Part shown: piece after piece, positions 1,183-9,425 of the stretch
How positions within the stretch are numbered: position 1 is the first letter of the stretch
How the letters are laid out: the number at the start of each line of letters is the position of its first letter
Assembly: GCF_000017305.1 (NCBI RefSeq)
Contig: NC_009664.2
Span: 2,100,001-2,132,000 of the forward strand
Direction: 5' to 3'
DNA length: 32,000 bases
From: Kineococcus radiotolerans SRS30216 = ATCC BAA-149
Lineage (GTDB): Bacteria; Actinomycetota; Actinomycetes; Actinomycetales; Kineococcaceae
Program-made: the position numbers and the translations under genes
Notes under the pieces: model-generated
The model's input: only the letters and a program-made list of their open reading frames with translations
Databases searched by the model: none
Told to the model about the DNA's origin: nothing

Positions 1183-1503
1183 ATGCACGAAGGATCGTCG
1201 TCGGACGCGGCGCAGACCCCGCGCTCGCTGCAGCGTCCCCGGTCCCGCAACCGCTTCGTGGACCTCTTCCTCGACGCGGCGTTCAGCTTCACCGGCCCCG
1301 CCCAGGTGTCCCGGGACGAGGCACCCCCGCGCGGGCCGCGCACCGAGGAGGAGGCGCGAGCCGGGTACGCCCAGTGGGAACGGGTGACCCGCGGCGGCCA
1401 CACCTACCTCGTCGAGCGCCGGGTCCCCGCCGAGGACCCGGGCGAACCCGCAGGATCCGGGGAACCCGGGGAACCCGGGAGCTCCAGCACCTCCAGCAGC
1501 TGA
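1183..1503 (+). CDS. Hypothetical small protein (106 aa), no recognisable family
   Basis: About 90% G/C at third codon positions in this frame, whereas the antisense ORF 1168-1401 looks like noise. The last 100 nt overlap the 3' end of the convergent ligase gene. The C-terminal GEP/SS-rich tail may be non-functional. Confidence 0.4.
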   Translation: MHEGSSSDAAQTPRSLQRPRSRNRFVDLFLDAAFSFTGPAQVSRDEAPPRGPRTEEEARAGYAQWERVTRGGHTYLVERRVPAEDPGEPAGSGEPGEPGSSSTSSS

Positions 1504-2429
1504 TCGAACCCCCGGCCGATCGCCTCCCCGTCGATCGACCCGGGCAGGATCCGCACCTCCAGCACGTCGGGGCCCGGGCGCACGCCGAGGACCCGGGTGA
1601 GGTTCACGTCACTGAACTTCGTCACCCCCGTGCGGGCCGCGACCGCGCGCAGCGACGCCCAGTCCGGCCAGTCGGCGCGGACGAGTTCCACCAGGTCCGC
1701 GGGCAGCGACCCCAGCCGGGTGCAGCGCGGGTTGGTCCCGAACCGCTCCCGGAGCTCCTCGCGCCGCCCGGCGAAGGTGGACACGACGTGGCGGAACCTG
1801 GCCACGTCCCGGAACGGCCCGGCGTCGAGGTTCACGTGGACGGCCGCCTCGGCCGGGACGGTGAAACCCAGGTCCCGCGCGGGGGCGAGCAGTTCCTCCA
1901 GGTGCCGGACGTGGTCGCGCTCCCAGGGCGGGGTCACGACCTCGCAGGGGCGTTCGCGCTCCCCCGGCAGCGGGGCCGCCATCGCGATCGTCGCCCCGGC
2001 GCCGTCGTCGAGCCGGCGCACGCCCCGCACCTCGCGGACCGGTGCGCCGAACAGTTCCGCCACCGGGTCCAGCACCGACCCGATCCCCTCCGCCGGGTCG
2101 GCGTGGCGCTCGACGAGGCGCAGCAGGCGGGGGTCGTCGCTGAGGACCCGGTACCAGCCCGGGCGCGGCGGCGCGCCCGCGTCGAGGTCGGCGACGATCG
2201 TGGTGTCGTCCACCAGCGAGCACACCGGTGCCCCCGCCGCGTCGACGACGTCGAAGGCGGGGGTGAGGTGCCAGAACGCCGCCACCCCCGGCGTCGCGGA
2301 CGCCTCGGTGTCGACGTGGAACCTTCGGCGCACCGATCCCCCTGCGCGGGAGGCGATCTCCTGCGCGAGGTCGAGCCTGCTCGCCCCCGCGGGGGCGAGC
2401 AGCTCGACCTCGAAACCGGCGCGCACCAC
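1404..2429 (-). CDS. Glutamine-synthetase-like COOH-NH2 ligase of the putative amidoligase family (Pfam Amidoligase_2-like)
   Basis: 341 aa with a GTG start at 2429, 1 nt after the stop of the upstream gene. Motifs typical of the family: N-terminal GFEVELLAP, CEVVTPPWERDH, AAVHVNLDAGPF, KFSDVNLTRV and LEVRILPGSIDG. Low-complexity C-terminal tail SPGSPDPAGSPGSS. Confidence 0.75.
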   Translation of the reverse strand: MVRAGFEVELLAPAGASRLDLAQEIASRAGGSVRRRFHVDTEASATPGVAAFWHLTPAFDVVDAAGAPVCSLVDDTTIVADLDAGAPPRPGWYRVLSDDPRLLRLVERHADPAEGIGSVLDPVAELFGAPVREVRGVRRLDDGAGATIAMAAPLPGERERPCEVVTPPWERDHVRHLEELLAPARDLGFTVPAEAAVHVNLDAGPFRDVARFRHVVSTFAGRREELRERFGTNPRCTRLGSLPADLVELVRADWPDWASLRAVAARTGVTKFSDVNLTRVLGVRPGPDVLEVRILPGSIDGEAIGRGFDQLLEVLELPGSPGSPDPAGSPGSSAGTRRSTR

Positions 2430-2430
2430 G

Positions 2431-2991
2431 TCAGGGGGCGACCGGCAGGGTCTCGCCCGCGAGCAGGTCGCGCCCGCCGGTGACCTTCGCCTCCCAGGGG
2501 CTCACGTGCCAGATCCCGCCGAGGGCCACCGCGTCGTCGTAGGTGTACCCGGCGGCGAAGAACGCGTCGACCGCCGTGGACTCCTCCGTCGGGAGCTCGG
2601 AGACGGGAACGGTGGGGGCGGGAGCGGAACTGCCCGGCTCGATCGGCAGCGTCTCCCCCGCGGCCAGCTTCTCCCCGCCGGTGACCTTCGCCTCCCACGA
2701 GTCCTGCGCCCACTGCTTCCCGAGGACGACGGCGTCGTCGTAGGTGTAGCCCGCGTCGAAGAACACCTCGCGCGAGGCCTGGTCGGGGTCGACGGGTTCG
2801 TCGACGAACCCCGCGGGGGGCGCCTCTACGGCGGGGGCGGTGCTCGCCGCGCGGACGGGTTCCACGTCGGCGGAGTTGGCGTTCGCGTAGGCGGTGCCGC
2901 CGGCGAGGGCGATGCCCCCGGCCACGACGGTCGCAGTGACGATCCGCGCCGCGCGCCGGTTCGCCGGGGTCCTGGTCTCGTTGTCGCTCAT
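2431..2991 (-). CDS. Secreted or membrane-anchored protein with two copies of an unassigned ~43-aa Trp/Tyr-rich repeat (gene B)
   Basis: The internal ATG at 2991 of track ORF 2431-3522 gives 186 aa: MSDNETRTPANRRAARIVTATVVAGGIALAGGTAYA/NANS... (hydrophobic segment ending in AxA). Repeats at aa 74-116 and 141-183. The longer ORF version would overlap gene A and reads as Arg/Gly noise. Confidence 0.75.
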   Translation of the reverse strand: MSDNETRTPANRRAARIVTATVVAGGIALAGGTAYANANSADVEPVRAASTAPAVEAPPAGFVDEPVDPDQASREVFFDAGYTYDDAVVLGKQWAQDSWEAKVTGGEKLAAGETLPIEPGSSAPAPTVPVSELPTEESTAVDAFFAAGYTYDDAVALGGIWHVSPWEAKVTGGRDLLAGETLPVAP

Positions 2992-3000
2992 GCCGGGGAA

Positions 3001-3027
3001 GACGACGCGGGGGGCGGCGGGGTTGCC
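3001..3027 (-). promoter_or_regulatory. ECF-type promoter in front of gene B: GGCAAC (3027-3022) N17 CGTC (3004-3001), 9 nt before ATG 2991
   Basis: Minus-strand reading: GGCAACcccgccgccccccgcgtCGTCttccccggcATG. The geometry is identical, and the sequence nearly identical, to the element upstream of the sigma gene. Confidence 0.55.
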
Positions 3028-3032
3028 CCGGT

Positions 3033-3515
3033 TCACCGGGGGACCGGGAGTTCGTCGCCGTTCTGCAGCGCCTGCCCGCCGAGGGCCTTGGCCTCCCACG
3101 GGTCGACGTTCCAGAGCTCGCCCAGGGGCACCGCGTCCTCGTACACGTACCCCGAGTCGAAGAACACGTCCCGCGCGGCCTCCGCGTCCATCACCAGCAC
3201 CGGCGGTTCCGTCGCCACCCGTGACGCCTCGGGCGCCGGCGCCGTCGGGACGGGCGAGGTCACCGCGGTGCTCGACGGGGTCCCCGCCGGGGCGAGGGCC
3301 GGTGGCGGGGCGGAGCGGCTCGTGCCCGCCCACACCGCTCCCCCCGCGACGACGAGCGCGGCGGGCAGCGTCGCCAGCGCGCGCCGGCGCCGCAGCCGTC
3401 GCCGGCCCCCCTCGCGCGCGGCGCCGAGGAGGCCGTCCCCCGCCCGCACGTCGCGCACCGACGCGTCGAGCTCGCGACGCAGCCGGTCCTCCCAGCCGCT
3501 CAGCCGTTCGTCCAC
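3033..3515 (-). CDS. Single-pass membrane protein, candidate anti-sigma factor, with one copy of the ~43-aa repeat (gene A)
   Basis: 160 aa. GTG start at 3515 overlaps the sigma gene by 16 nt. Domain order: Arg-rich N-terminus (RRRLRRRR), TM helix ALATLPAALVVAGGAVWAG, Pro/Ala/Thr linker, then C-terminal repeat RDVFFDSGYVYEDAVPLGELWNVDPWEAKALGGQALQNGDELP. No HxxxCxxC zinc motif. Confidence 0.75.
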   Translation of the reverse strand: MDERLSGWEDRLRRELDASVRDVRAGDGLLGAAREGGRRRLRRRRALATLPAALVVAGGAVWAGTSRSAPPPALAPAGTPSSTAVTSPVPTAPAPEASRVATEPPVLVMDAEAARDVFFDSGYVYEDAVPLGELWNVDPWEAKALGGQALQNGDELPVPR

Positions 3516-4009
3516 CGCGCACCCACCCCTTCTCCGCTCGGCTCCCCCACCAGTGCCCGCAACGAGGCCAGCCCCTTGGAGGCCTGGCTCTTGACCGTCC
3601 CGCGCGTCACGTCGAGCTGGTCGGCGATCTGCTCCTCCGACCAGTCCTCGAAGTAGCGCAGGACGATGACGGCCCGCTGCCGCGGGGGCAGCCGGCGCAG
3701 CGCCTCGACGACCCGGGACCGTTCAGCGCGCTCGGCGGTGCCGTCGGGCACCGCCCGGTCGTGGTGGTCCTCGAAGCCGACCTCGCGGGGGCGGCGCGCC
3801 CGCGCCCGCCACCGGTCGGTGACCTTGCGGGTCAGGGCCGTGCGCGCGTAGGCGTGCGGGTCCTCGATGCGCCGCCAGCGGACGTACATCCGCTCCAGGA
3901 CGTCCTGGAGCAGGTCCTCGGCGTGACCGCGGTCCCCGGTCAGGAGCAGCGCGAAGCCCAGCAGCCGGTCGCTGCCGGTGCTCACGAACTCCTCGAAGGA
4001 ACCTTCCAC
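3500..4009 (-). CDS. ECF (sigma-70 group 4) RNA polymerase sigma factor, actinobacterial SigE-like
   Basis: 169 aa with a GTG start at 4009. Region 2 reads DRGHAEDLLQDVLERMYVRWRRI. Region 4 reads LPPRQRAVIVLRYFEDWSEEQIADQLDVTRGTVKSQASKGLASLR. Confidence 0.9.
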   Translation of the reverse strand: MEGSFEEFVSTGSDRLLGFALLLTGDRGHAEDLLQDVLERMYVRWRRIEDPHAYARTALTRKVTDRWRARARRPREVGFEDHHDRAVPDGTAERAERSRVVEALRRLPPRQRAVIVLRYFEDWSEEQIADQLDVTRGTVKSQASKGLASLRALVGEPSGEGVGARWTNG

Positions 4010-4018
4010 ACCGTTGCA

Positions 4019-4045
4019 GACGTCCGGGGGGCCCGCGGGGTTGCC
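4019..4045 (-). promoter_or_regulatory. ECF-type (autoregulatory) promoter: GGCAAC (4045-4040) N17 CGTC (4022-4019), 9 nt before GTG 4009
   Basis: Minus-strand reading: GGCAACcccgcgggccccccggaCGTCtgcaacggtGTG. This fits the classic ECF -35 GGAAC-like / -10 CGTC architecture. Confidence 0.55.
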
Positions 4046-4086: not shown

Positions 4087-4134
4087 TCGACGGCGCAAAC
4101 GGATAGTGCTACTTTCCGATAGTGCGAGTATCCG
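4087..4134 (+). promoter_or_regulatory. merR-family gene promoter/operator: TCGACG N17 TACTTT, 6 nt before GTG 4122, flanked by direct repeats GATAGTGC and an inverted repeat CGGATA/TATCCG
   Basis: -35-like element at 4087-4092 and -10 TAnnnT at 4110-4115. GATAGTGC occurs at 4102-4109 and 4118-4125 (the second copy contains the start codon). CGGATA at 4100-4105 pairs with TATCCG at 4129-4134. This is the lowest-GC patch of the intergenic region. Confidence 0.35.
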
Positions 4135-4769
4135 AGTTGGCCGAGCGAGCGGGCGTCCCCCTCTCCGCCGTGAAGTACTACCAGCGCGAGGGGCTGCTGC
4201 CCCCCGGCGTCCGGACCGCCCCCAACCAGGTCGCCTACGGCGACCCGCACGTGCGGCGCGTCCGGCTCATCCGCGCCCTCCTGGAGACGGGGGGCCTCTC
4301 CGTGGCGGCCACGAAGGAGGTCGTCGCCGCCCTCGACGCCGACGCGGCCCCGCTCGCCGAGGCGTTCGGCGTCACCCAGCGCGCCATGAGCGCCCGGCGC
4401 ACCCAGGAGTCCACGCCGAGCGCGGCCGCCCGCGCCCGCGTCGAGGCGCTCGCCGCCGCCCGCGGCTGGAACGTCACCGCCGGCAACCCCGGCGTCGACG
4501 CCGCCGCCCGCGCCCTCGACGGGCTGCGCGCCATCGGCTTCGACGCCCCCGACGCCTACCTCGAGGCCTACGCGGCCGCGGCCGCCACCGCCGCCGCCGC
4601 CGACCTCCACGCGCTCGCCGGGCGCGGTGACCGCGACGCCGTCGCGGAGCTCATGGTCGTCGGGACCGTCCTCGGCGACCCGCTCTTCGCCGGTCTGCGC
4701 CGCCTCGCCCACGAGGACGCCACCCACGCCCTCCTCCCCGCCCCCGAGCAGGAACGAGCCGAACCGTGA
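4122..4769 (+). CDS. MerR family transcriptional regulator
   Basis: 215 aa. N-terminal winged HTH: MRVSELAERAGVPLSAVKYYQREGLLPPGVRTAPNQVAYGDPHVRRVRLIRALLETGGLSVAATKEVV. Confidence 0.85.
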   Translation: MRVSELAERAGVPLSAVKYYQREGLLPPGVRTAPNQVAYGDPHVRRVRLIRALLETGGLSVAATKEVVAALDADAAPLAEAFGVTQRAMSARRTQESTPSAAARARVEALAAARGWNVTAGNPGVDAAARALDGLRAIGFDAPDAYLEAYAAAAATAAAADLHALAGRGDRDAVAELMVVGTVLGDPLFAGLRRLAHEDATHALLPAPEQERAEP

Positions 4770-5689
4770 TCCCACCCGCGCACGTCGTCCTCGGCGGCAA
4801 CGGCGTCGTCGGCCGCGAGACCCTCCGGGCCCTCCTCGCCGCCGGCCACGTCCCGGCCTCCGTCGGCCGCCGACCCCCCGCCGTCGAGGGGGTCGTGCCC
4901 GTCACCGCCGACCTCCTCGACCCCGCCGACGTCACCCGCGCCCTGCACGGGGCCGAGGTCGCCTACCTGGTGGCGGGACTGCCCTACTCCTCCCGCACGT
5001 GGGCGCGGCAGTGGCCGGTGATCGTCGGCAACGTCGCCGACGCCGCGCTCGCCGAGGGCACCCACCTCGTGCACCTCGACAACGTCTACGCCTACGGCCG
5101 CGTCGAGGGCGCCATGACCGAGGACACCCCGATCGCCCCGGTCAGCCGGAAGGGCCGCGTCCGGGCCGCCGCGCTGGACCTCCTCGCCGCCGCCGCCGCC
5201 CGCGGGCTCGTCGTGACCACCGCGCGCAGCGCCGACTTCTACGGCCCCGGCGCCTCGACCAGCGCGTTCAACACCTTCGCCCTGGACCGGATCGCCGCCG
5301 GGCGCACCGGCACCTGGCTCCTCGACGCCGACCAGCCCCACTCCCTCACCTACACCCCCGACGTCGGCGACGCCCTCGCCGTCCTCGGCACCGCGCCGCA
5401 GGCCCGCGGCCGCACCTGGCACCTGCCCACCGCCCCCGCCCTCACCGGCCGCGAGCACGTCCGTCTCGCCGCCGGCCCCGACGCCCGGACCGCCGTCATG
5501 GGCCTCACCGCGCTGCGGATCGGGGCCCTCTTCTCCACCGCCGCCCGCGAGACCCTGGAGATGAGCTACCAGCACACCGCCCCGTACGTCTTCGACTCCA
5601 CCGCCTTCGAGACCGCCTTCGGCCTCACCCCCACCCCGGCGGCGGAGGGCGTCGCCGCGGCGCTGGCCGCGGCGCGAGCGGGCTCGTGA
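4766..5689 (+). CDS. NAD(P)-binding epimerase/dehydratase-type (atypical SDR / NmrA-like) protein
   Basis: 307 aa. Rossmann motif VVLGGNGVVGRETLRALLAAGH. The GTG start overlaps the merR-family stop (GTGA at 4766-4769). Confidence 0.8.
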   Translation: MIPPAHVVLGGNGVVGRETLRALLAAGHVPASVGRRPPAVEGVVPVTADLLDPADVTRALHGAEVAYLVAGLPYSSRTWARQWPVIVGNVADAALAEGTHLVHLDNVYAYGRVEGAMTEDTPIAPVSRKGRVRAAALDLLAAAAARGLVVTTARSADFYGPGASTSAFNTFALDRIAAGRTGTWLLDADQPHSLTYTPDVGDALAVLGTAPQARGRTWHLPTAPALTGREHVRLAAGPDARTAVMGLTALRIGALFSTAARETLEMSYQHTAPYVFDSTAFETAFGLTPTPAAEGVAAALAAARAGS

Positions 5690-6645
5690 CGCTCACCGCG
5701 CTGCGCCGCGCCCACGCCTGGCACCGGCCGCTGACGACCGTCGCCGCCCTCGTCGCCGGGTGCGCGCTGGTCAGCGCGGCCGGTCTCGTCCTCGACCCCC
5801 GCGAGATCCTCGGCGCGCCCGCGTGGGCGAAACCGCTGAAGTTCTCCCTCTCCATCCTCGTCCATACCCTCACCTGGGCCTGGCTGATCGCCCACCTCCC
5901 CCGGTGGCGGGCGCCCGCCCACCGCCTCGGCACCGTCGTCGCCGTCACCCTCGCCGTCGAGCAGGTGCTCATCGTGGGCGCGGCCGCGAGCGGGACCACC
6001 AGCCACTTCAACGTCACCGACGGCCCGCACGCCACCGTCTGGGTGGTCATGGCCGTCTCCATCACGGTCATGTACCTCTGCACGTTCGCGCTCTCGGCCG
6101 CGGTGTTCCTCCTGCGCCTGCCCACCCCGGCCCTCACCCTCGCCGTGCGCGCCGGGGTCCTCGTCGCGCTCGCCGGGATCGGGGTCGCCTTCCTCATGAC
6201 CGCCCCCACCCCGGCGCAGCTCGCCGCACCCACCGGGGTCGTCGGCGCCCACGCCGTCGGCGTCGAGGACGGCGGGCCCGGCCTGCCGCTGCTGGGGTGG
6301 AGCACCACCGGGGGCGACCACCGCGTCGCGCACGCGGTCGGGATGCACGCCGTGCAGGTCCTGCCCCTCGCGGCGCTGCTGCTGGGCGCCCTGGCCCGCC
6401 GCGTCCCCCGCCTCGCCCCGCCGGCCGTGCAGGTCCGGCTCACCGCCACCGTCGCCGCCGCCTACGCCCTCGCGACCGGTCTGCTGACCCTGCAGGCGTC
6501 GCTCGGGCAGTCCGTCGCGCACCCCTCCGGCGTCGTCCTGCTCGCGGGCGGGGCGCTGGCCCTGGCCACCGCCGCGACCGCCGCCGCCGTCGTCGTCCGC
6601 GCCCCGCGGCCCCCCGCCGCGCGCCCCGCGGTGGCGGTCAGGTGA
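5686..6645 (+). CDS. Polytopic membrane protein of unknown function (~7 hydrophobic segments)
   Basis: GTG 5686 overlaps the upstream stop (GTGA). It is in frame with the 3' part of track ORF 4627-6645. The translation VTLTALRRAHAWHRPLTTVAALVAGCALVSAAGLVL...KPLKFSLSILVHTLTWAWLIAHL... is strongly hydrophobic, whereas the 5' part of that ORF is Arg/Pro noise. Confidence 0.7.
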   Translation: MTLTALRRAHAWHRPLTTVAALVAGCALVSAAGLVLDPREILGAPAWAKPLKFSLSILVHTLTWAWLIAHLPRWRAPAHRLGTVVAVTLAVEQVLIVGAAASGTTSHFNVTDGPHATVWVVMAVSITVMYLCTFALSAAVFLLRLPTPALTLAVRAGVLVALAGIGVAFLMTAPTPAQLAAPTGVVGAHAVGVEDGGPGLPLLGWSTTGGDHRVAHAVGMHAVQVLPLAALLLGALARRVPRLAPPAVQVRLTATVAAAYALATGLLTLQASLGQSVAHPSGVVLLAGGALALATAATAAAVVVRAPRPPAARPAVAVR

Positions 6646-8479
6646 CGTGCAGCGTGAACCAGACGCCCTTGCCGACGTCGTGCGCCCGGGTGGGCCACTG
6701 CACCCCCCAGTCGTCGGCGCAGGCCTGGACCAGGTGCAGGCCCCGCCCCGAGAGGGCCGACTCGTCCTGCTCCAGCAGCTCCGGGACGCGGTGGTTGTCG
6801 TCCCACACCTCCACCCGCAGCACCTCCGGGGTCGCGCGCACGGTGAGCAGGGTCTCGCTGCGGCCGTGCACGACGGCGTTGGTGACGAGCTCGCTGGTGA
6901 GCAGGACGGCGGTGTCGACGTCGGCGCCGGTCCAGCCGGAGCGGGTGCAGGTGCGCCGCACCACCTGCCGCGCCCGGGAGGGCGACTGCGGCTCGGCGGG
7001 CAGGGTCAGGGTGCGGGAGGCCACCGCCTCCGCCGGGGCCCGCCGGTCCCCCGGCGCGCCGGTCCCGTCCGCGGCCCGGCGGGCCCCCGCGCCGAGGACG
7101 ACGGCGAGCAGCAGCGTCCGGTCGTCCTCCACGCCCCGCACGTCGCCGGGGCCCCCGCCGGTGGCCGCCATCAGCTCCCGGGCGGCGGCCGCGGGGTCGG
7201 CCAGGTCCAGGGCGGCGAACCGCCCGGCCAGGCGCGCCAGCCCCGCGCCCAGCTCCTCCCCGCGGGTCTCGACCACCCCGTCGCTGTAGAGGAGCAGCGC
7301 GCTGCCGGCCCCCAGGTGGGCCCGGTGCTCGCGGCGCTCCACCGCCGGGTCGACGCCCAGGATCGGGTCGCGGTCGTCGAGCAGGCCCTCGTCGTCGGTG
7401 CCCGGGGCCCCGGCCGCGCGGGCCGCCGCCCCCGCGTCGCGGCTGCCCCCCAGGGCTCCGTCGCGCAGCAGGTCGACGCTGCGGTCGGGACGGCGCACCA
7501 GCGGCGAGGGGTGCCCGGCGCTGGCCCAGCGCACCGACACCCCCGCCGCGCCCTCGTCGTGCAGGACGGCCAGGACGACGGAGGCCAGGGTCCCCGGCTC
7601 CAGCGCGGTCAGCACCTCGTCGAGGTCGTGCAGCACCTCCCCCGCCGCCCGCTCGCTGCCCCAGACCACCCCGCGCAGCAGGACCCGCACCTGGCTCATC
7701 GCCGCCGCGGCCCGCTCGTCGTGGCCGGAGACGTCGCCGAGCACCAGCACCAGGTCCCCGGACCGGTTCTCGAAGGCGTCGTACCAGTCCCCGCCGATGT
7801 CGGCCGAGGCCTGCACCGGCTGGTAGCCCGCGGCGAGGGACAACCCGTCGCGCTCGGGCAGCACCGCCAGGGAGCTGCGCTGCAGCTGCGTGGACAGGCG
7901 CCGGACCCCCGTGGTCGCGGCCTCCTCCTCGCGGGTGGCCAGCAGCCGGGCCAGCGTCGGCGCGCACTGCGCCGCGAACGCGTCCAGGAGGGTCGCGGTC
8001 GCCGCGTCGAAGGGGCCCGGCTCCTCCCAGGAGAGGGCCAGGCTGCCGACGACGCTCCCCCCGGCGCGCAGCGGGAGCAGCGCCCAGCGGGGCCGGCCGG
8101 TCAGGTCGACGACGTCGGCCATCCGCGGGTGGTCCAGCACCGCGGCGGCGCGGTCGGGCAGGAGGCAGCGCACCCCGTCGCGGGCGGCGCGGATCGCCGG
8201 CAGGTCGCTGTCGCGGGGTTCGTCGGGGAAGCGGCCCGCGAAGCGGGGGTCCAGCGGGGCCGCGGCCAGCAACCGCCAGGTCCCCTCGGGGGTGGGCACC
8301 ACGACCCCGCACCCCGCGGCGGCGAAGACGGTGCGGGCGTGCCGCACGAGGCTGGTCTGGAACTCCTCGAGACCGGTGAGGGAGGAGAGCTCGACGGCGC
8401 AGCGGGCCAGCGCGCGCCACGTGGTGTCCGCGGCCGGCGGTCCACCGGCGGGACCGGGAGAACCGGGGGACCCGGCCAT
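6638..8479 (-). CDS. GAF - PP2C/SpoIIE phosphatase - HATPase_c (RsbW-like anti-sigma kinase domain) fusion protein
   Basis: ATG 8479 is preceded by GGAGGAGG; 613 aa. PP2C motifs DIGGDWYD, LGDVSGHD and LYSDGVVE. C-terminal ATPase motifs LLTSELVTNAVVHG and SGRGLHLVQACADDWGV. The N-terminal ~190 aa look GAF-like (WALLPLRAGGSVVGSLALSW). Confidence 0.85.
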   Translation of the reverse strand: MAGSPGSPGPAGGPPAADTTWRALARCAVELSSLTGLEEFQTSLVRHARTVFAAAGCGVVVPTPEGTWRLLAAAPLDPRFAGRFPDEPRDSDLPAIRAARDGVRCLLPDRAAAVLDHPRMADVVDLTGRPRWALLPLRAGGSVVGSLALSWEEPGPFDAATATLLDAFAAQCAPTLARLLATREEEAATTGVRRLSTQLQRSSLAVLPERDGLSLAAGYQPVQASADIGGDWYDAFENRSGDLVLVLGDVSGHDERAAAAMSQVRVLLRGVVWGSERAAGEVLHDLDEVLTALEPGTLASVVLAVLHDEGAAGVSVRWASAGHPSPLVRRPDRSVDLLRDGALGGSRDAGAAARAAGAPGTDDEGLLDDRDPILGVDPAVERREHRAHLGAGSALLLYSDGVVETRGEELGAGLARLAGRFAALDLADPAAAARELMAATGGGPGDVRGVEDDRTLLLAVVLGAGARRAADGTGAPGDRRAPAEAVASRTLTLPAEPQSPSRARQVVRRTCTRSGWTGADVDTAVLLTSELVTNAVVHGRSETLLTVRATPEVLRVEVWDDNHRVPELLEQDESALSGRGLHLVQACADDWGVQWPTRAHDVGKGVWFTLHVT

Positions 8480-8642
8480 CGCGCCTCCTCCGCGGGTCGC
8501 GTCGCGCGGGGTGCGTCGAGGTCGGCCGCCGGACGAGTCCACCACGACGGCGGCACCGTCGCCAGCCCCCGCCCCGCCCGCACCGCACGGACCGCGCCGG
8601 GGGTGGGCCCGGGCCGGTGCGGGGCCCCGGCATGCTGGGCCC

Positions 8643-9425
8643 GTGAGCGACGCCGCCCCCGCGCAGCCCCCGCCCGCGGGACCTCCCGCCGGCCCCCCGG
8701 ACCGCGCCGCCGTCGTCCGGCAGGGCCTGTCCGTGGCGGTGGCGACCGGCCTGTACGGGGTCAGCTTCGGCGCGCTGAGCGTCACCAGCGGGCTGAGCGT
8801 GCTGCAGACCTGCCTGCTGTCGCTGCTGCTGTTCAGCGGCGGGTCCCAGTTCGCGCTCGTCGGCGTGCTCGGGGGCGGCGGCACCGGCGGCGCCGCCCTC
8901 GCCGCGTCCTCCCTGCTGGGGGTGCGCAACGCGCTGTACGGCCTGCAGCTGAGCCCCACGATGCGCCCGCGCGGGTGGCGGCGCGTCGTCGTCCCCCAGC
9001 TGACCATCGACGAGTCCACGGCCGTCGCCGTCGCCCAGCCCGTGCGGGCGCTGCGGCGGCTGGGGTTCTGGGTGACCGGGCTCGGCGTCTACGCCGGGTG
9101 GAACCTCACGACCCTCCTCGGGGCCCTGGCCGGGGATGCCCTCGGCGACCCGCAGCGCTTCGGCCTCGACGCGGCGGCCGCGGCGTCCTTCGCGGCGCTG
9201 CTGTGGCCGCGGGTGCGCGGGCGCGAGCCCGTCGCCGTCGCCGTCGTCGCCGTGCTGCTGACGACGGTCCTGGTGCCGGTGGTCCCCCCCGGGCTGCCGG
9301 TGGTGGCCGCGGCCCTGGCCGGTTCGGTGCTGGCGTGGTCCTGGCGGGCCCGCCCGCCCGGCCCGTCCACCCCGCCGGGCGGGGACGCGCCGGGCCGGGA
9401 CGCGGCGGGCGGGAGCGCGGCGTGA
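8643..9425 (+). CDS. azlC: AzlC family branched-chain amino acid exporter subunit
   Basis: GTG 8643 is in frame with the 3' part of ORF 7890-9425. The translation GLSVAVATGLYGVSFGALSVTSGLSVLQTCLLSLLLFSGGSQFALVGVL... is typical of AzlC. Confidence 0.8.
   Translation: MSDAAPAQPPPAGPPAGPPDRAAVVRQGLSVAVATGLYGVSFGALSVTSGLSVLQTCLLSLLLFSGGSQFALVGVLGGGGTGGAALAASSLLGVRNALYGLQLSPTMRPRGWRRVVVPQLTIDESTAVAVAQPVRALRRLGFWVTGLGVYAGWNLTTLLGALAGDALGDPQRFGLDAAAAASFAALLWPRVRGREPVAVAVVAVLLTTVLVPVVPPGLPVVAAALAGSVLAWSWRARPPGPSTPPGGDAPGRDAAGGSAA

Follow-up and report, generated by a model that had tools for sequence, protein, structure and literature searches.

A three-helix repeat shared by a putative anti-sigma factor and a predicted secreted protein in a sigma factor-amidoligase gene module of Kineococcus radiotolerans

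The stretch of DNA analysed here, 32,000 nucleotides of Kineococcus radiotolerans SRS30216 (contig NC_009664.2, positions 2,100,001 to 2,132,000, hereafter the window), carries on its minus strand three copies of a repeat rich in Trp and Tyr, one in protein A, a putative single-pass anti-sigma factor, and two in protein B, a predicted secreted protein encoded next to it. Pairs of extracytoplasmic function (ECF) sigma factors and their anti-sigma factors are a major route of bacterial transmembrane signalling, and for most actinobacterial groups the signal that is sensed is unknown. We describe the repeat as an autonomous three-helix domain of about 50 residues, undescribed in databases, which is carried on Pro/Ala/Ser/Thr-rich linkers and predicted to be exported to the envelope, and which is part of a three- or four-gene module comprising a SigE-family ECF sigma factor, A, often B, and an enzyme of the Amidoligase_2 family. 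This amounts to a new candidate sensor domain and a new gene module within the known ECF sigma/anti-sigma signalling. In the interpretation that we favour, to which we give about an even chance of being right, the repeats would be the extracytoplasmic sensing or binding element of the module, B an induced soluble copy of that element and the amidoligase the cytoplasmic effector.

The copies lie at 3045-3173 in A and at 2644-2772 and 2443-2571 in B, and translation of the minus strand gives exactly the peptides picked out earlier from the letters alone (the sequence-only reading), at residues 115-157 of A and 74-116 and 141-183 of B, the latter counted from the ATG at 2991. Twenty-one columns are invariant among the three 43-residue copies. 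A profile of the repeat, run against the six-frame open reading frames (ORFs) of the window and of the first 33 loci fetched, recovers A with E = 2.8e-26 and B with E = 2e-57, and matches no other ORF of the window. The copies share 67-74% of their nucleotides and 56-67% of their amino acids pairwise, and since they are only 67-74% identical in DNA they should be regarded as old duplicates. The repeats are under constraint, as judged from 23 orthologues of B with two repeats, in which column identity averages 0.73-0.75 within the repeats vs 0.38-0.48 within the linkers. Nor is the repeat a local duplication of this one genome, as it is conserved across Actinomycetota and in a few other phyla. 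The window has a G+C content of about 77% and the region is full of overlapping spurious ORFs, a setting that speaks for a chance or compositional artefact; this explanation is refuted, and hardly conceivable, given profile E-values of 1e-20 to 1e-57, hundreds of homologues across families, repeats conserved above their linkers and a confident fold prediction.

Concerning kinship, the sequence-only reading could assign the repeat to no small envelope domain, and the searches agree, with no described domain of this kind matched in Pfam, NCBIfam, the PDB sequences or, using Foldseek, the PDB and BFVD structures. Pfam-A, including LysM, PG_binding_1, SPOR and PepSY, gives no family for A, for B or for one repeat by itself, even at E<=10, and in a Pfam scan of 145 diverse members no family recurs, none being matched by more than 2 members; the matches in the repeat region of these members are all sub-threshold except for one marginal Peptidase_M66 in protein P0155. 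In NCBIfam nothing rises above its cutoff, the best matches (15.4 bits for A, cutoff 37; 13 bits for B, cutoff 48.45) falling in the N-terminal region, outside the repeats. Searches of the PDB sequences with B and with the repeat profile yield nothing meaningful, the best profile match (E = 0.11) being to a low-complexity ubiquitin stretch. Foldseek searches are equally negative: the single-repeat model reaches at best E = 2.3 (probability 0.25) against the PDB and E = 0.67 against BFVD, and the full-length model of B E = 1.0. DUF6971, DUF4933, Peptidase_M66 and ubiquitin-associated (UBA)-like domains were rejected as identities, all of them sub-threshold or marginal, limited to one or two proteins each and mutually inconsistent. 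The literature searched, which did not take in the original amidoligase survey or the ECF group tables, holds no report of an amidoligase linked with ECF sigma factors or exported repeat proteins. Neither the repeat nor its amidoligase linkage is described by any family model, any solved structure or the literature within reach.

The domain is slightly longer than the 43 residues first delimited, the model spanning about 50-54. For a single 54-residue unit, AlphaFold2 with a 47-sequence alignment predicts a three-helix bundle with high confidence (predicted local distance difference test, pLDDT, 96.2; predicted template modelling score, pTM, 0.80), in which helices span residues 4-14, 19-29 and 33-45 and G-x-x-L-P-x-x-P forms an extended tail. 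With these margins the copy in A covers 3036..3197, and repeats 1 and 2 of B cover 2635..2793 and 2434..2595, their helices being placed by AlphaFold at residues 71-79, 84-93 and 98-110 and at 135-146, 151-161 and 165-177, respectively. The model of full-length B has a block-mean pLDDT of 93-97 over both repeats, with 93-96 over repeat 1, low values in the linker between them and values below 50 over residues 1-57; with a pTM of 0.38, no fixed packing is predicted between the repeats, which look like independent beads on a flexible string. K37 is invariant, D21 near-invariant and an LPxxP C-terminus conserved. Judging from the model, most of the invariant residues appear structural, being of the hydrophobic or Gly/Pro kind needed to pack a bundle of 50 residues. 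Mature B has a net charge of -18; binding of cations or polyamines through an acidic and aromatic composition was rejected, as the net charge of 831 repeats lies anywhere between -12 and +9, the median being -2, and because it varies so widely acidity is not a property of the family.

A word-indexed search with B yields 368 relatives, all unnamed, from Kineococcus, Actinoplanes, Krasilnikovia, Virgisporangium, Mycobacteriales and others, the closest being 99% identical and from Kineococcus radiotolerans itself. An exhaustive HMMER search of 1.84 billion representative proteins yields 724 at E<=1e-3 and 461 at E<=1e-10, and these 724 cluster representatives hold 1-9 repeat copies per protein. 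Many of the listed proteins are N-terminally incomplete fragments, and architectures were judged on full-length members, among which there are only two, both with repeats running to the C-terminus and neither with any other Pfam domain. The A-type has a head of about 40 residues with the conserved motif (D/E)xLRxxF..HE..APD...V, an Arg-rich stretch, a transmembrane (TM) segment whose start is at about residue 40-50, and then 1-5 repeats; this succession of head, TM segment and repeats is found in more than 100 homologues. In the B-type, 2-9 repeats come after an N-terminal signal. LP(I/V)xP ends the last repeat, and with it the protein, in actinobacterial members. A distant branch is represented by P0155 (locus L037, 5001-6929), a protein of 642 residues with nine copies of the unit YADSxYSYxDAxxLAxxWG..AKLxIG.

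That the repeats lie outside the cytoplasm, as the sequence-only reading had proposed, is a consistent prediction from the N-terminal segments: they are preceded by an Arg-rich stretch and TM segment, or by a signal of the RR type, the Sec type or with a lipobox. B-type signals contain RR in Kineococcus, Humibacter and Pseudonocardia, with a classical RRGLL motif in locus L025; they are of the Sec type in L030 and L032, and a lipobox is found in a metagenome-assembled genome (MAG) of Myxococcota. As the lineages use different export signals, the prediction has independent support. In B of the window the predicted signal peptide (2884..2991) contains N-R-R-A-A-R-I, with RR at residues 12-13, then a hydrophobic core at 17-36 and A-Y-A before the predicted cleavage site; the match to the profile TIGR02811 of the twin-arginine translocation (Tat) pathway is weak (E = 0.096).

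These data also bear on the role proposed in the sequence-only reading, a glycan, peptidoglycan or lipid ligand site formed by the aromatic residues; the repeat would then bind cell wall, glycans or lipids in the manner of LysM, PG_binding or SPOR and anchor A and B to the envelope. The predicted extracytoplasmic location, the conserved Tyr and Trp residues and the layout of the tandem copies along flexible linkers, which many wall-binding modules share, are all in keeping with this role. However, the repeat has no sequence or fold kinship to any wall-binding family, its non-actinobacterial members occur in lineages with different envelopes, and an anchor leaves the amidoligase neighbour unexplained. 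Moreover, a single ligand site formed by the invariant aromatic residues is doubtful in view of the model, where Y17 and Y19 are placed at the turn between helices 1 and 2 and W29 at the far end of helix 2, that is, at opposite ends of the bundle, and where they would more simply be core residues. Taken together we consider a wall-binding module quite improbable. Hence, of the earlier proposals the repeat itself, its novelty and its predicted location stand, the aromatic ligand site for glycan, peptidoglycan or lipid found no support, and two elements of the locus had been overlooked: the amidoligase neighbour and the promoter of B.

All genes of the module lie on the minus strand of the window, in the order sigma, A, B, amidoligase. 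The sigma factor (3500..4009, 169 residues) belongs to the SigE family, with 170.2 bits against TIGR02983 (cutoff 141.55), and shows both Sigma70_r2 (E = 1.3e-8) and Sigma70_r4_2 (E = 1.3e-17). The A gene (3033..3515, 160 residues) comes directly downstream of the sigma gene, its start overlapping the sigma stop by 16 nt. From its translation and predicted TM segment, A consists of a head predicted to be cytoplasmic (residues 1-37), the stretch RRRLRRRR (38-45), the TM segment (46-64) and, after a linker rich in Pro, Ala, Ser and Thr, one repeat at the C-terminus. Its status as a putative anti-sigma factor follows from position and topology, as A-type proteins follow a sigma gene in several actinobacterial orders and the head motif is conserved. 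B (2431..2991, 186 residues) follows after a short gap, and its stop codon is separated by 1 nt from the GTG start of the amidoligase gene (1404..2429).

The exact motif GCAACC-N16-CGTCT, of the type expected for an ECF promoter, occurs twice in the 32 kb of the window, against 0.01 expected. One copy, at 4018..4044, precedes the sigma GTG at 4009, and the other, at 3000..3026 between A and B, precedes the B ATG at 2991; in both cases the 3' end of the motif is 8 nt upstream of the start codon. Such spacing implies that the sigma and B transcripts are leaderless, and it speaks for ATG 2991 as the codon at which B truly starts. The annotated K. radiotolerans orthologue P0006 (201 residues, 99% identical) starts 15 codons upstream (2991-3036), a start which is probably too far upstream because the motif at 3000-3026 would fall inside the coding region. 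The same pair of promoters is present in four Kineococcus loci (L002-L005), and the locus L006, which is without B, has a single copy. Related motifs lie some 10 nt before the sigma start in other clades, where CGTCT or GCATCT is preceded by (T)GCAC(A/G)T or ACAC, and in L035 and L036, where the order is B, amidoligase, sigma, A, the leading gene B has CCACAT-N(15-16)-CGTCT or CGTTCT upstream of it. The promoter of the window is similar to the AAC...CGTCT type of the SigE (TIGR02983) group. As far as such motifs can tell, the sigma transcript is probably autoregulated, and B and the amidoligase appear to be a direct and dedicated output of the sigma factor.

What the data show is the domain with its spread and architectures, the gene linkage and the promoter pair; from these we infer a topology, an anti-sigma function for A, sensing by the repeats and feedback by B, and the module could work as follows. 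The short cytoplasmic head of A presumably holds the sigma factor, and its ectodomain, which consists of repeats alone, would decide whether the sigma factor is released. Free sigma would transcribe its own operon and, from the second, identical promoter, B and the amidoligase. B, whose production is induced, would then act as the sensor domain in soluble form; sharing its partner with A, be it a ligand or A itself, it would feed back on signalling. The amidoligase would be the cytoplasmic effector of the response.

Alternatively, the repeats could form a purely homotypic surface without external ligand, on which B docks onto A as RseB does on RseA and controls the proteolysis of A. In line with this, A and B share the domain at 56-58% identity, both types co-occur in lineages as distant as Kineococcus, Humibacter, Promicromonospora, Pseudonocardia and Acidimicrobiales, and the sigma-type promoter that B has to itself is what one would expect of a feedback component. 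But docking between A and B is weakened by the many loci that have only one of them: most loci hold an A-type protein with 3-4 repeats and no B, sigma, three-repeat protein and amidoligase being the commonest arrangement, and some hold B without A. Furthermore, AlphaFold predicts no packing between the repeats of B, and the total number of repeats per locus varies from 2 to about 6. A purely homotypic role therefore strikes us as rather remote. A related proposal, that A and B are the two parts of a split three-repeat anti-sigma factor, was rejected as a rule, as the numbers of repeats in the two proteins are 1+2, 2+3, 2+0, 2+2, 3+0 and 4+0. In an uncultured actinomycete MAG (L010, 5045-6162) an apparent 1+3 split is the frameshift of a four-repeat gene of the anti-sigma type, given that the downstream piece has no signal peptide; an intact relative is found in L012.

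The enzyme encoded downstream of B is a protein of 341 residues without signal peptide and a member of Amidoligase_2 (PF12224; E = 3.2e-13; 50.6 bits, cutoff 22). A genome scan with one genome per species, using patterns derived from a four-sequence repeat alignment, led to 32 loci, which together with that of Virgisporangium (L001) make 33. Across 32 loci, 70 residues of the amidoligase are near-invariant, including GxExE, E163, E194/H198 and E291xR293, and because residues of the catalytic type are kept throughout, the enzyme is probably active. Its Pro/Gly/Ser-rich C-terminal tail, encoded in the window by a tandem DNA repeat with a 9/18-nt period (1433-1479, PGSPGSPDPAGSPGSS), is missing from most homologues. 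An amidoligase gene is present in 31 of these first 33 loci and a sigma factor in at least 23, with weaker sigma matches in four more; no other neighbouring gene is conserved across the 33. The association also holds in the reverse direction: starting from amidoligase homologues, repeat proteins were found in all three genomes searched (Cellulomonas fimi, Promicromonospora iranensis and a third genome), and 80 metagenome loci fetched with the amidoligase profile, 72 of them with usable flanks, include a repeat protein in 66 of the 72.

In 98 of 112 loci the repeat gene is immediately upstream of the amidoligase gene, its stop -1 to 129 nt from amidoligase residue 1, with 11 nt as the commonest distance and a median of 24.5 nt; by this spacing the two genes are contiguous or overlapping in most loci. 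The commonest order is sigma, A with 2-4 repeats, amidoligase, and the Virgisporangium locus, with a three-repeat A-type protein, is of this kind. Sigma, A, B, amidoligase is the order of Kineococcus. The order B, amidoligase, sigma, A is found in Humibacter, Promicromonospora, Pseudonocardia and Acidimicrobiales. B and the amidoligase stand without adjacent sigma gene in C. fimi (L034), L025 and L032; L033 is also without sigma, and there the repeat and amidoligase genes are on opposite strands. In the C. fimi locus a convergent gene for an aminoglycoside N-acetyltransferase (Antibiotic_NAT, 6120-6911) follows the B-amidoligase pair, an arrangement seen in this single locus.

Several points weigh against the sensor interpretation. 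No anti-sigma domain (zf-HC2 or RskA type) is detected by Pfam or NCBIfam in A or in 145 relatives, and the predicted cytoplasmic head of A has about 37-45 residues vs about 80-90 for a class I anti-sigma domain. The repeat-amidoligase pair that occurs without sigma or A has a function of its own, which a pure sensor model does not explain, and the strict order of repeat gene then amidoligase gene, often with overlapping stop and start, would sooner suggest that the two proteins act upon one another than that they are simply co-regulated. P0155 has no detectable signal peptide and neither a sigma nor an amidoligase neighbour; the existence of its branch means that the domain superfamily is wider than the amidoligase-linked clade.

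The linkage data speak instead for the possibility that the repeats are the protein substrate, or an obligate partner, of the amidoligase, modified before export, perhaps via the Tat pathway, which carries folded proteins. The enzyme would attach an amine to a repeat carboxylate, for instance at the conserved C-terminus or at the near-invariant Asp that opens helix 2, or would cross-link Asp to the invariant Lys, and since A shares the repeat its modification state would report enzyme activity. This proposal accounts for the position of the repeat gene directly upstream, often with overlapping stop and start, for the persistence of the pair without sigma and for the association in both directions; the conserved K37, D21 and LPxxP would be its targets, and several B-type signals contain RR, one of them classical. 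Also in its favour are three amidoligase homologues without repeat partner (L092, L093, L115), which are changed at otherwise invariant positions, W92 to R and P167-P168 to A-V. These three metagenome sequences form a sister group with about 53% identity and are encoded directly after a CopA-like heavy-metal P-type ATPase gene. On the other hand, the predicted compartments differ, the repeats being outside and the enzyme, without signal peptide, inside the cell, and modification before export would be unusual. RR before a hydrophobic segment is weak evidence at 77% G+C, where Arg generally replaces Lys, and the Tat profile match is poor. In the model, D21 fits a helix N-cap box and K37 could form a structural salt bridge, and the accessible amidoligase literature reports no protein substrate for Amidoligase_2. 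On balance we think it unlikely that the repeats are modified in this way, although this is the main rival of the sensor interpretation. A broader form of the proposal is that repeat and Amidoligase_2 constitute a new protein-directed envelope ligation system, in which the ligase modifies the repeat or makes its small-molecule ligand, export of the repeat follows and the anti-sigma factor, which bears this repeat too, reads the resulting state, closing a homeostatic loop; this too we hold only as a minority possibility next to the favoured sensor interpretation.

Around the module the window contains further genes. The methyltransferase gene (374-1027), the MerR-family regulator gene (4122-4769) and transporter genes were rejected as members of the module, as they are not conserved across the loci. 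Between the methyltransferase and amidoligase genes lies an intergenic near-perfect tandem repeat at 1089-1138 (GGCGGGACGG, five copies, 97% matches). On the plus strand, divergent from the sigma gene, the MerR-family gene is followed by one for an NAD-dependent epimerase (4766-5689), so that the pair spans 4122-5689; a weak MerR-like gene follows the amidoligase in the Virgisporangium locus, a pairing that is not conserved across loci. At 6638-9019 (minus strand), 2.6 kb from the ECF sigma gene, a 793-residue protein combines GAF, SpoIIE (PP2C phosphatase) and HATPase_c_2, a combination typical of partner-switching sigma regulation; in the Promicromonospora locus (L035) a SpoIIE/HATPase_c_2 protein and a STAS protein are likewise encoded near the module.

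As regards its significance, the analysis defines a compact and confidently folded candidate sensor domain together with its full gene module and a precise promoter pair that can be used as a reporter. Through it a clade of Amidoligase_2 also gains its first strong genomic context; no assigned substrate for this family was found in the literature within reach. That a repeat protein predicted to be exported should be so strictly paired with a ligase of the cytoplasm is puzzling, and open to direct test. If a ligation system were indeed at work, this would be the first function assigned to an Amidoligase_2 clade and a new kind of input into ECF signalling.

Among known systems, the envelope-stress system sigma-E/RseA/RseB of E. 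coli is alike in having an ECF sigma factor, a single-pass anti-sigma factor with an extracytoplasmic domain, a second exported protein of the operon that acts there, and autoregulation. There is, however, no sequence or fold kinship, and in Kineococcus the predicted exported protein carries the domain that also forms the ectodomain of the putative anti-sigma factor; it has a separate promoter of the sigma type and is coupled to a cytoplasmic amidoligase that has no RseA/RseB counterpart. The clostridial SigI/RsgI systems resemble the module in another respect, as the exterior of the anti-sigma factor is built from modules also present in sigma-induced secreted proteins, so that sensor and output share a target; but the RsgI modules are carbohydrate-binding modules or glycoside-hydrolase-like domains with known polysaccharide ligands, whereas the Kineococcus repeat is predicted to be a three-helix bundle, and its sigma factor falls into the SigE family (TIGR02983) rather than SigI. 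The module is homologous to neither of these two systems. The cell-envelope stress operon SigE-CseA-CseB-CseC of Streptomyces coelicolor has a sigma factor of the same NCBIfam subfamily, SigE being the founding member of TIGR02983, and differs in being under two-component control rather than that of an adjacent membrane anti-sigma factor, in its unrelated lipoprotein CseA and in an operon without amidoligase. Concerning the fold, UBA, homeodomain-like and helix-turn-helix modules are similar in size and share the up-down-up three-helix topology, and they provide the top Foldseek matches; these are non-significant (E>=0.67, probability <=0.28, mostly with a root-mean-square deviation above 4 A), and such modules are cytoplasmic or nuclear whereas the repeat is predicted to be exported. 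Finally, Amidoligase_2 comprises putative carboxylate-amine ligases with a glutamine-synthetase-like fold, whose typical acidic, His and Arg residues are kept by the enzyme of the window. Published contexts of the family include pairings with amidotransferase-like peptidases or cyclotransferases.

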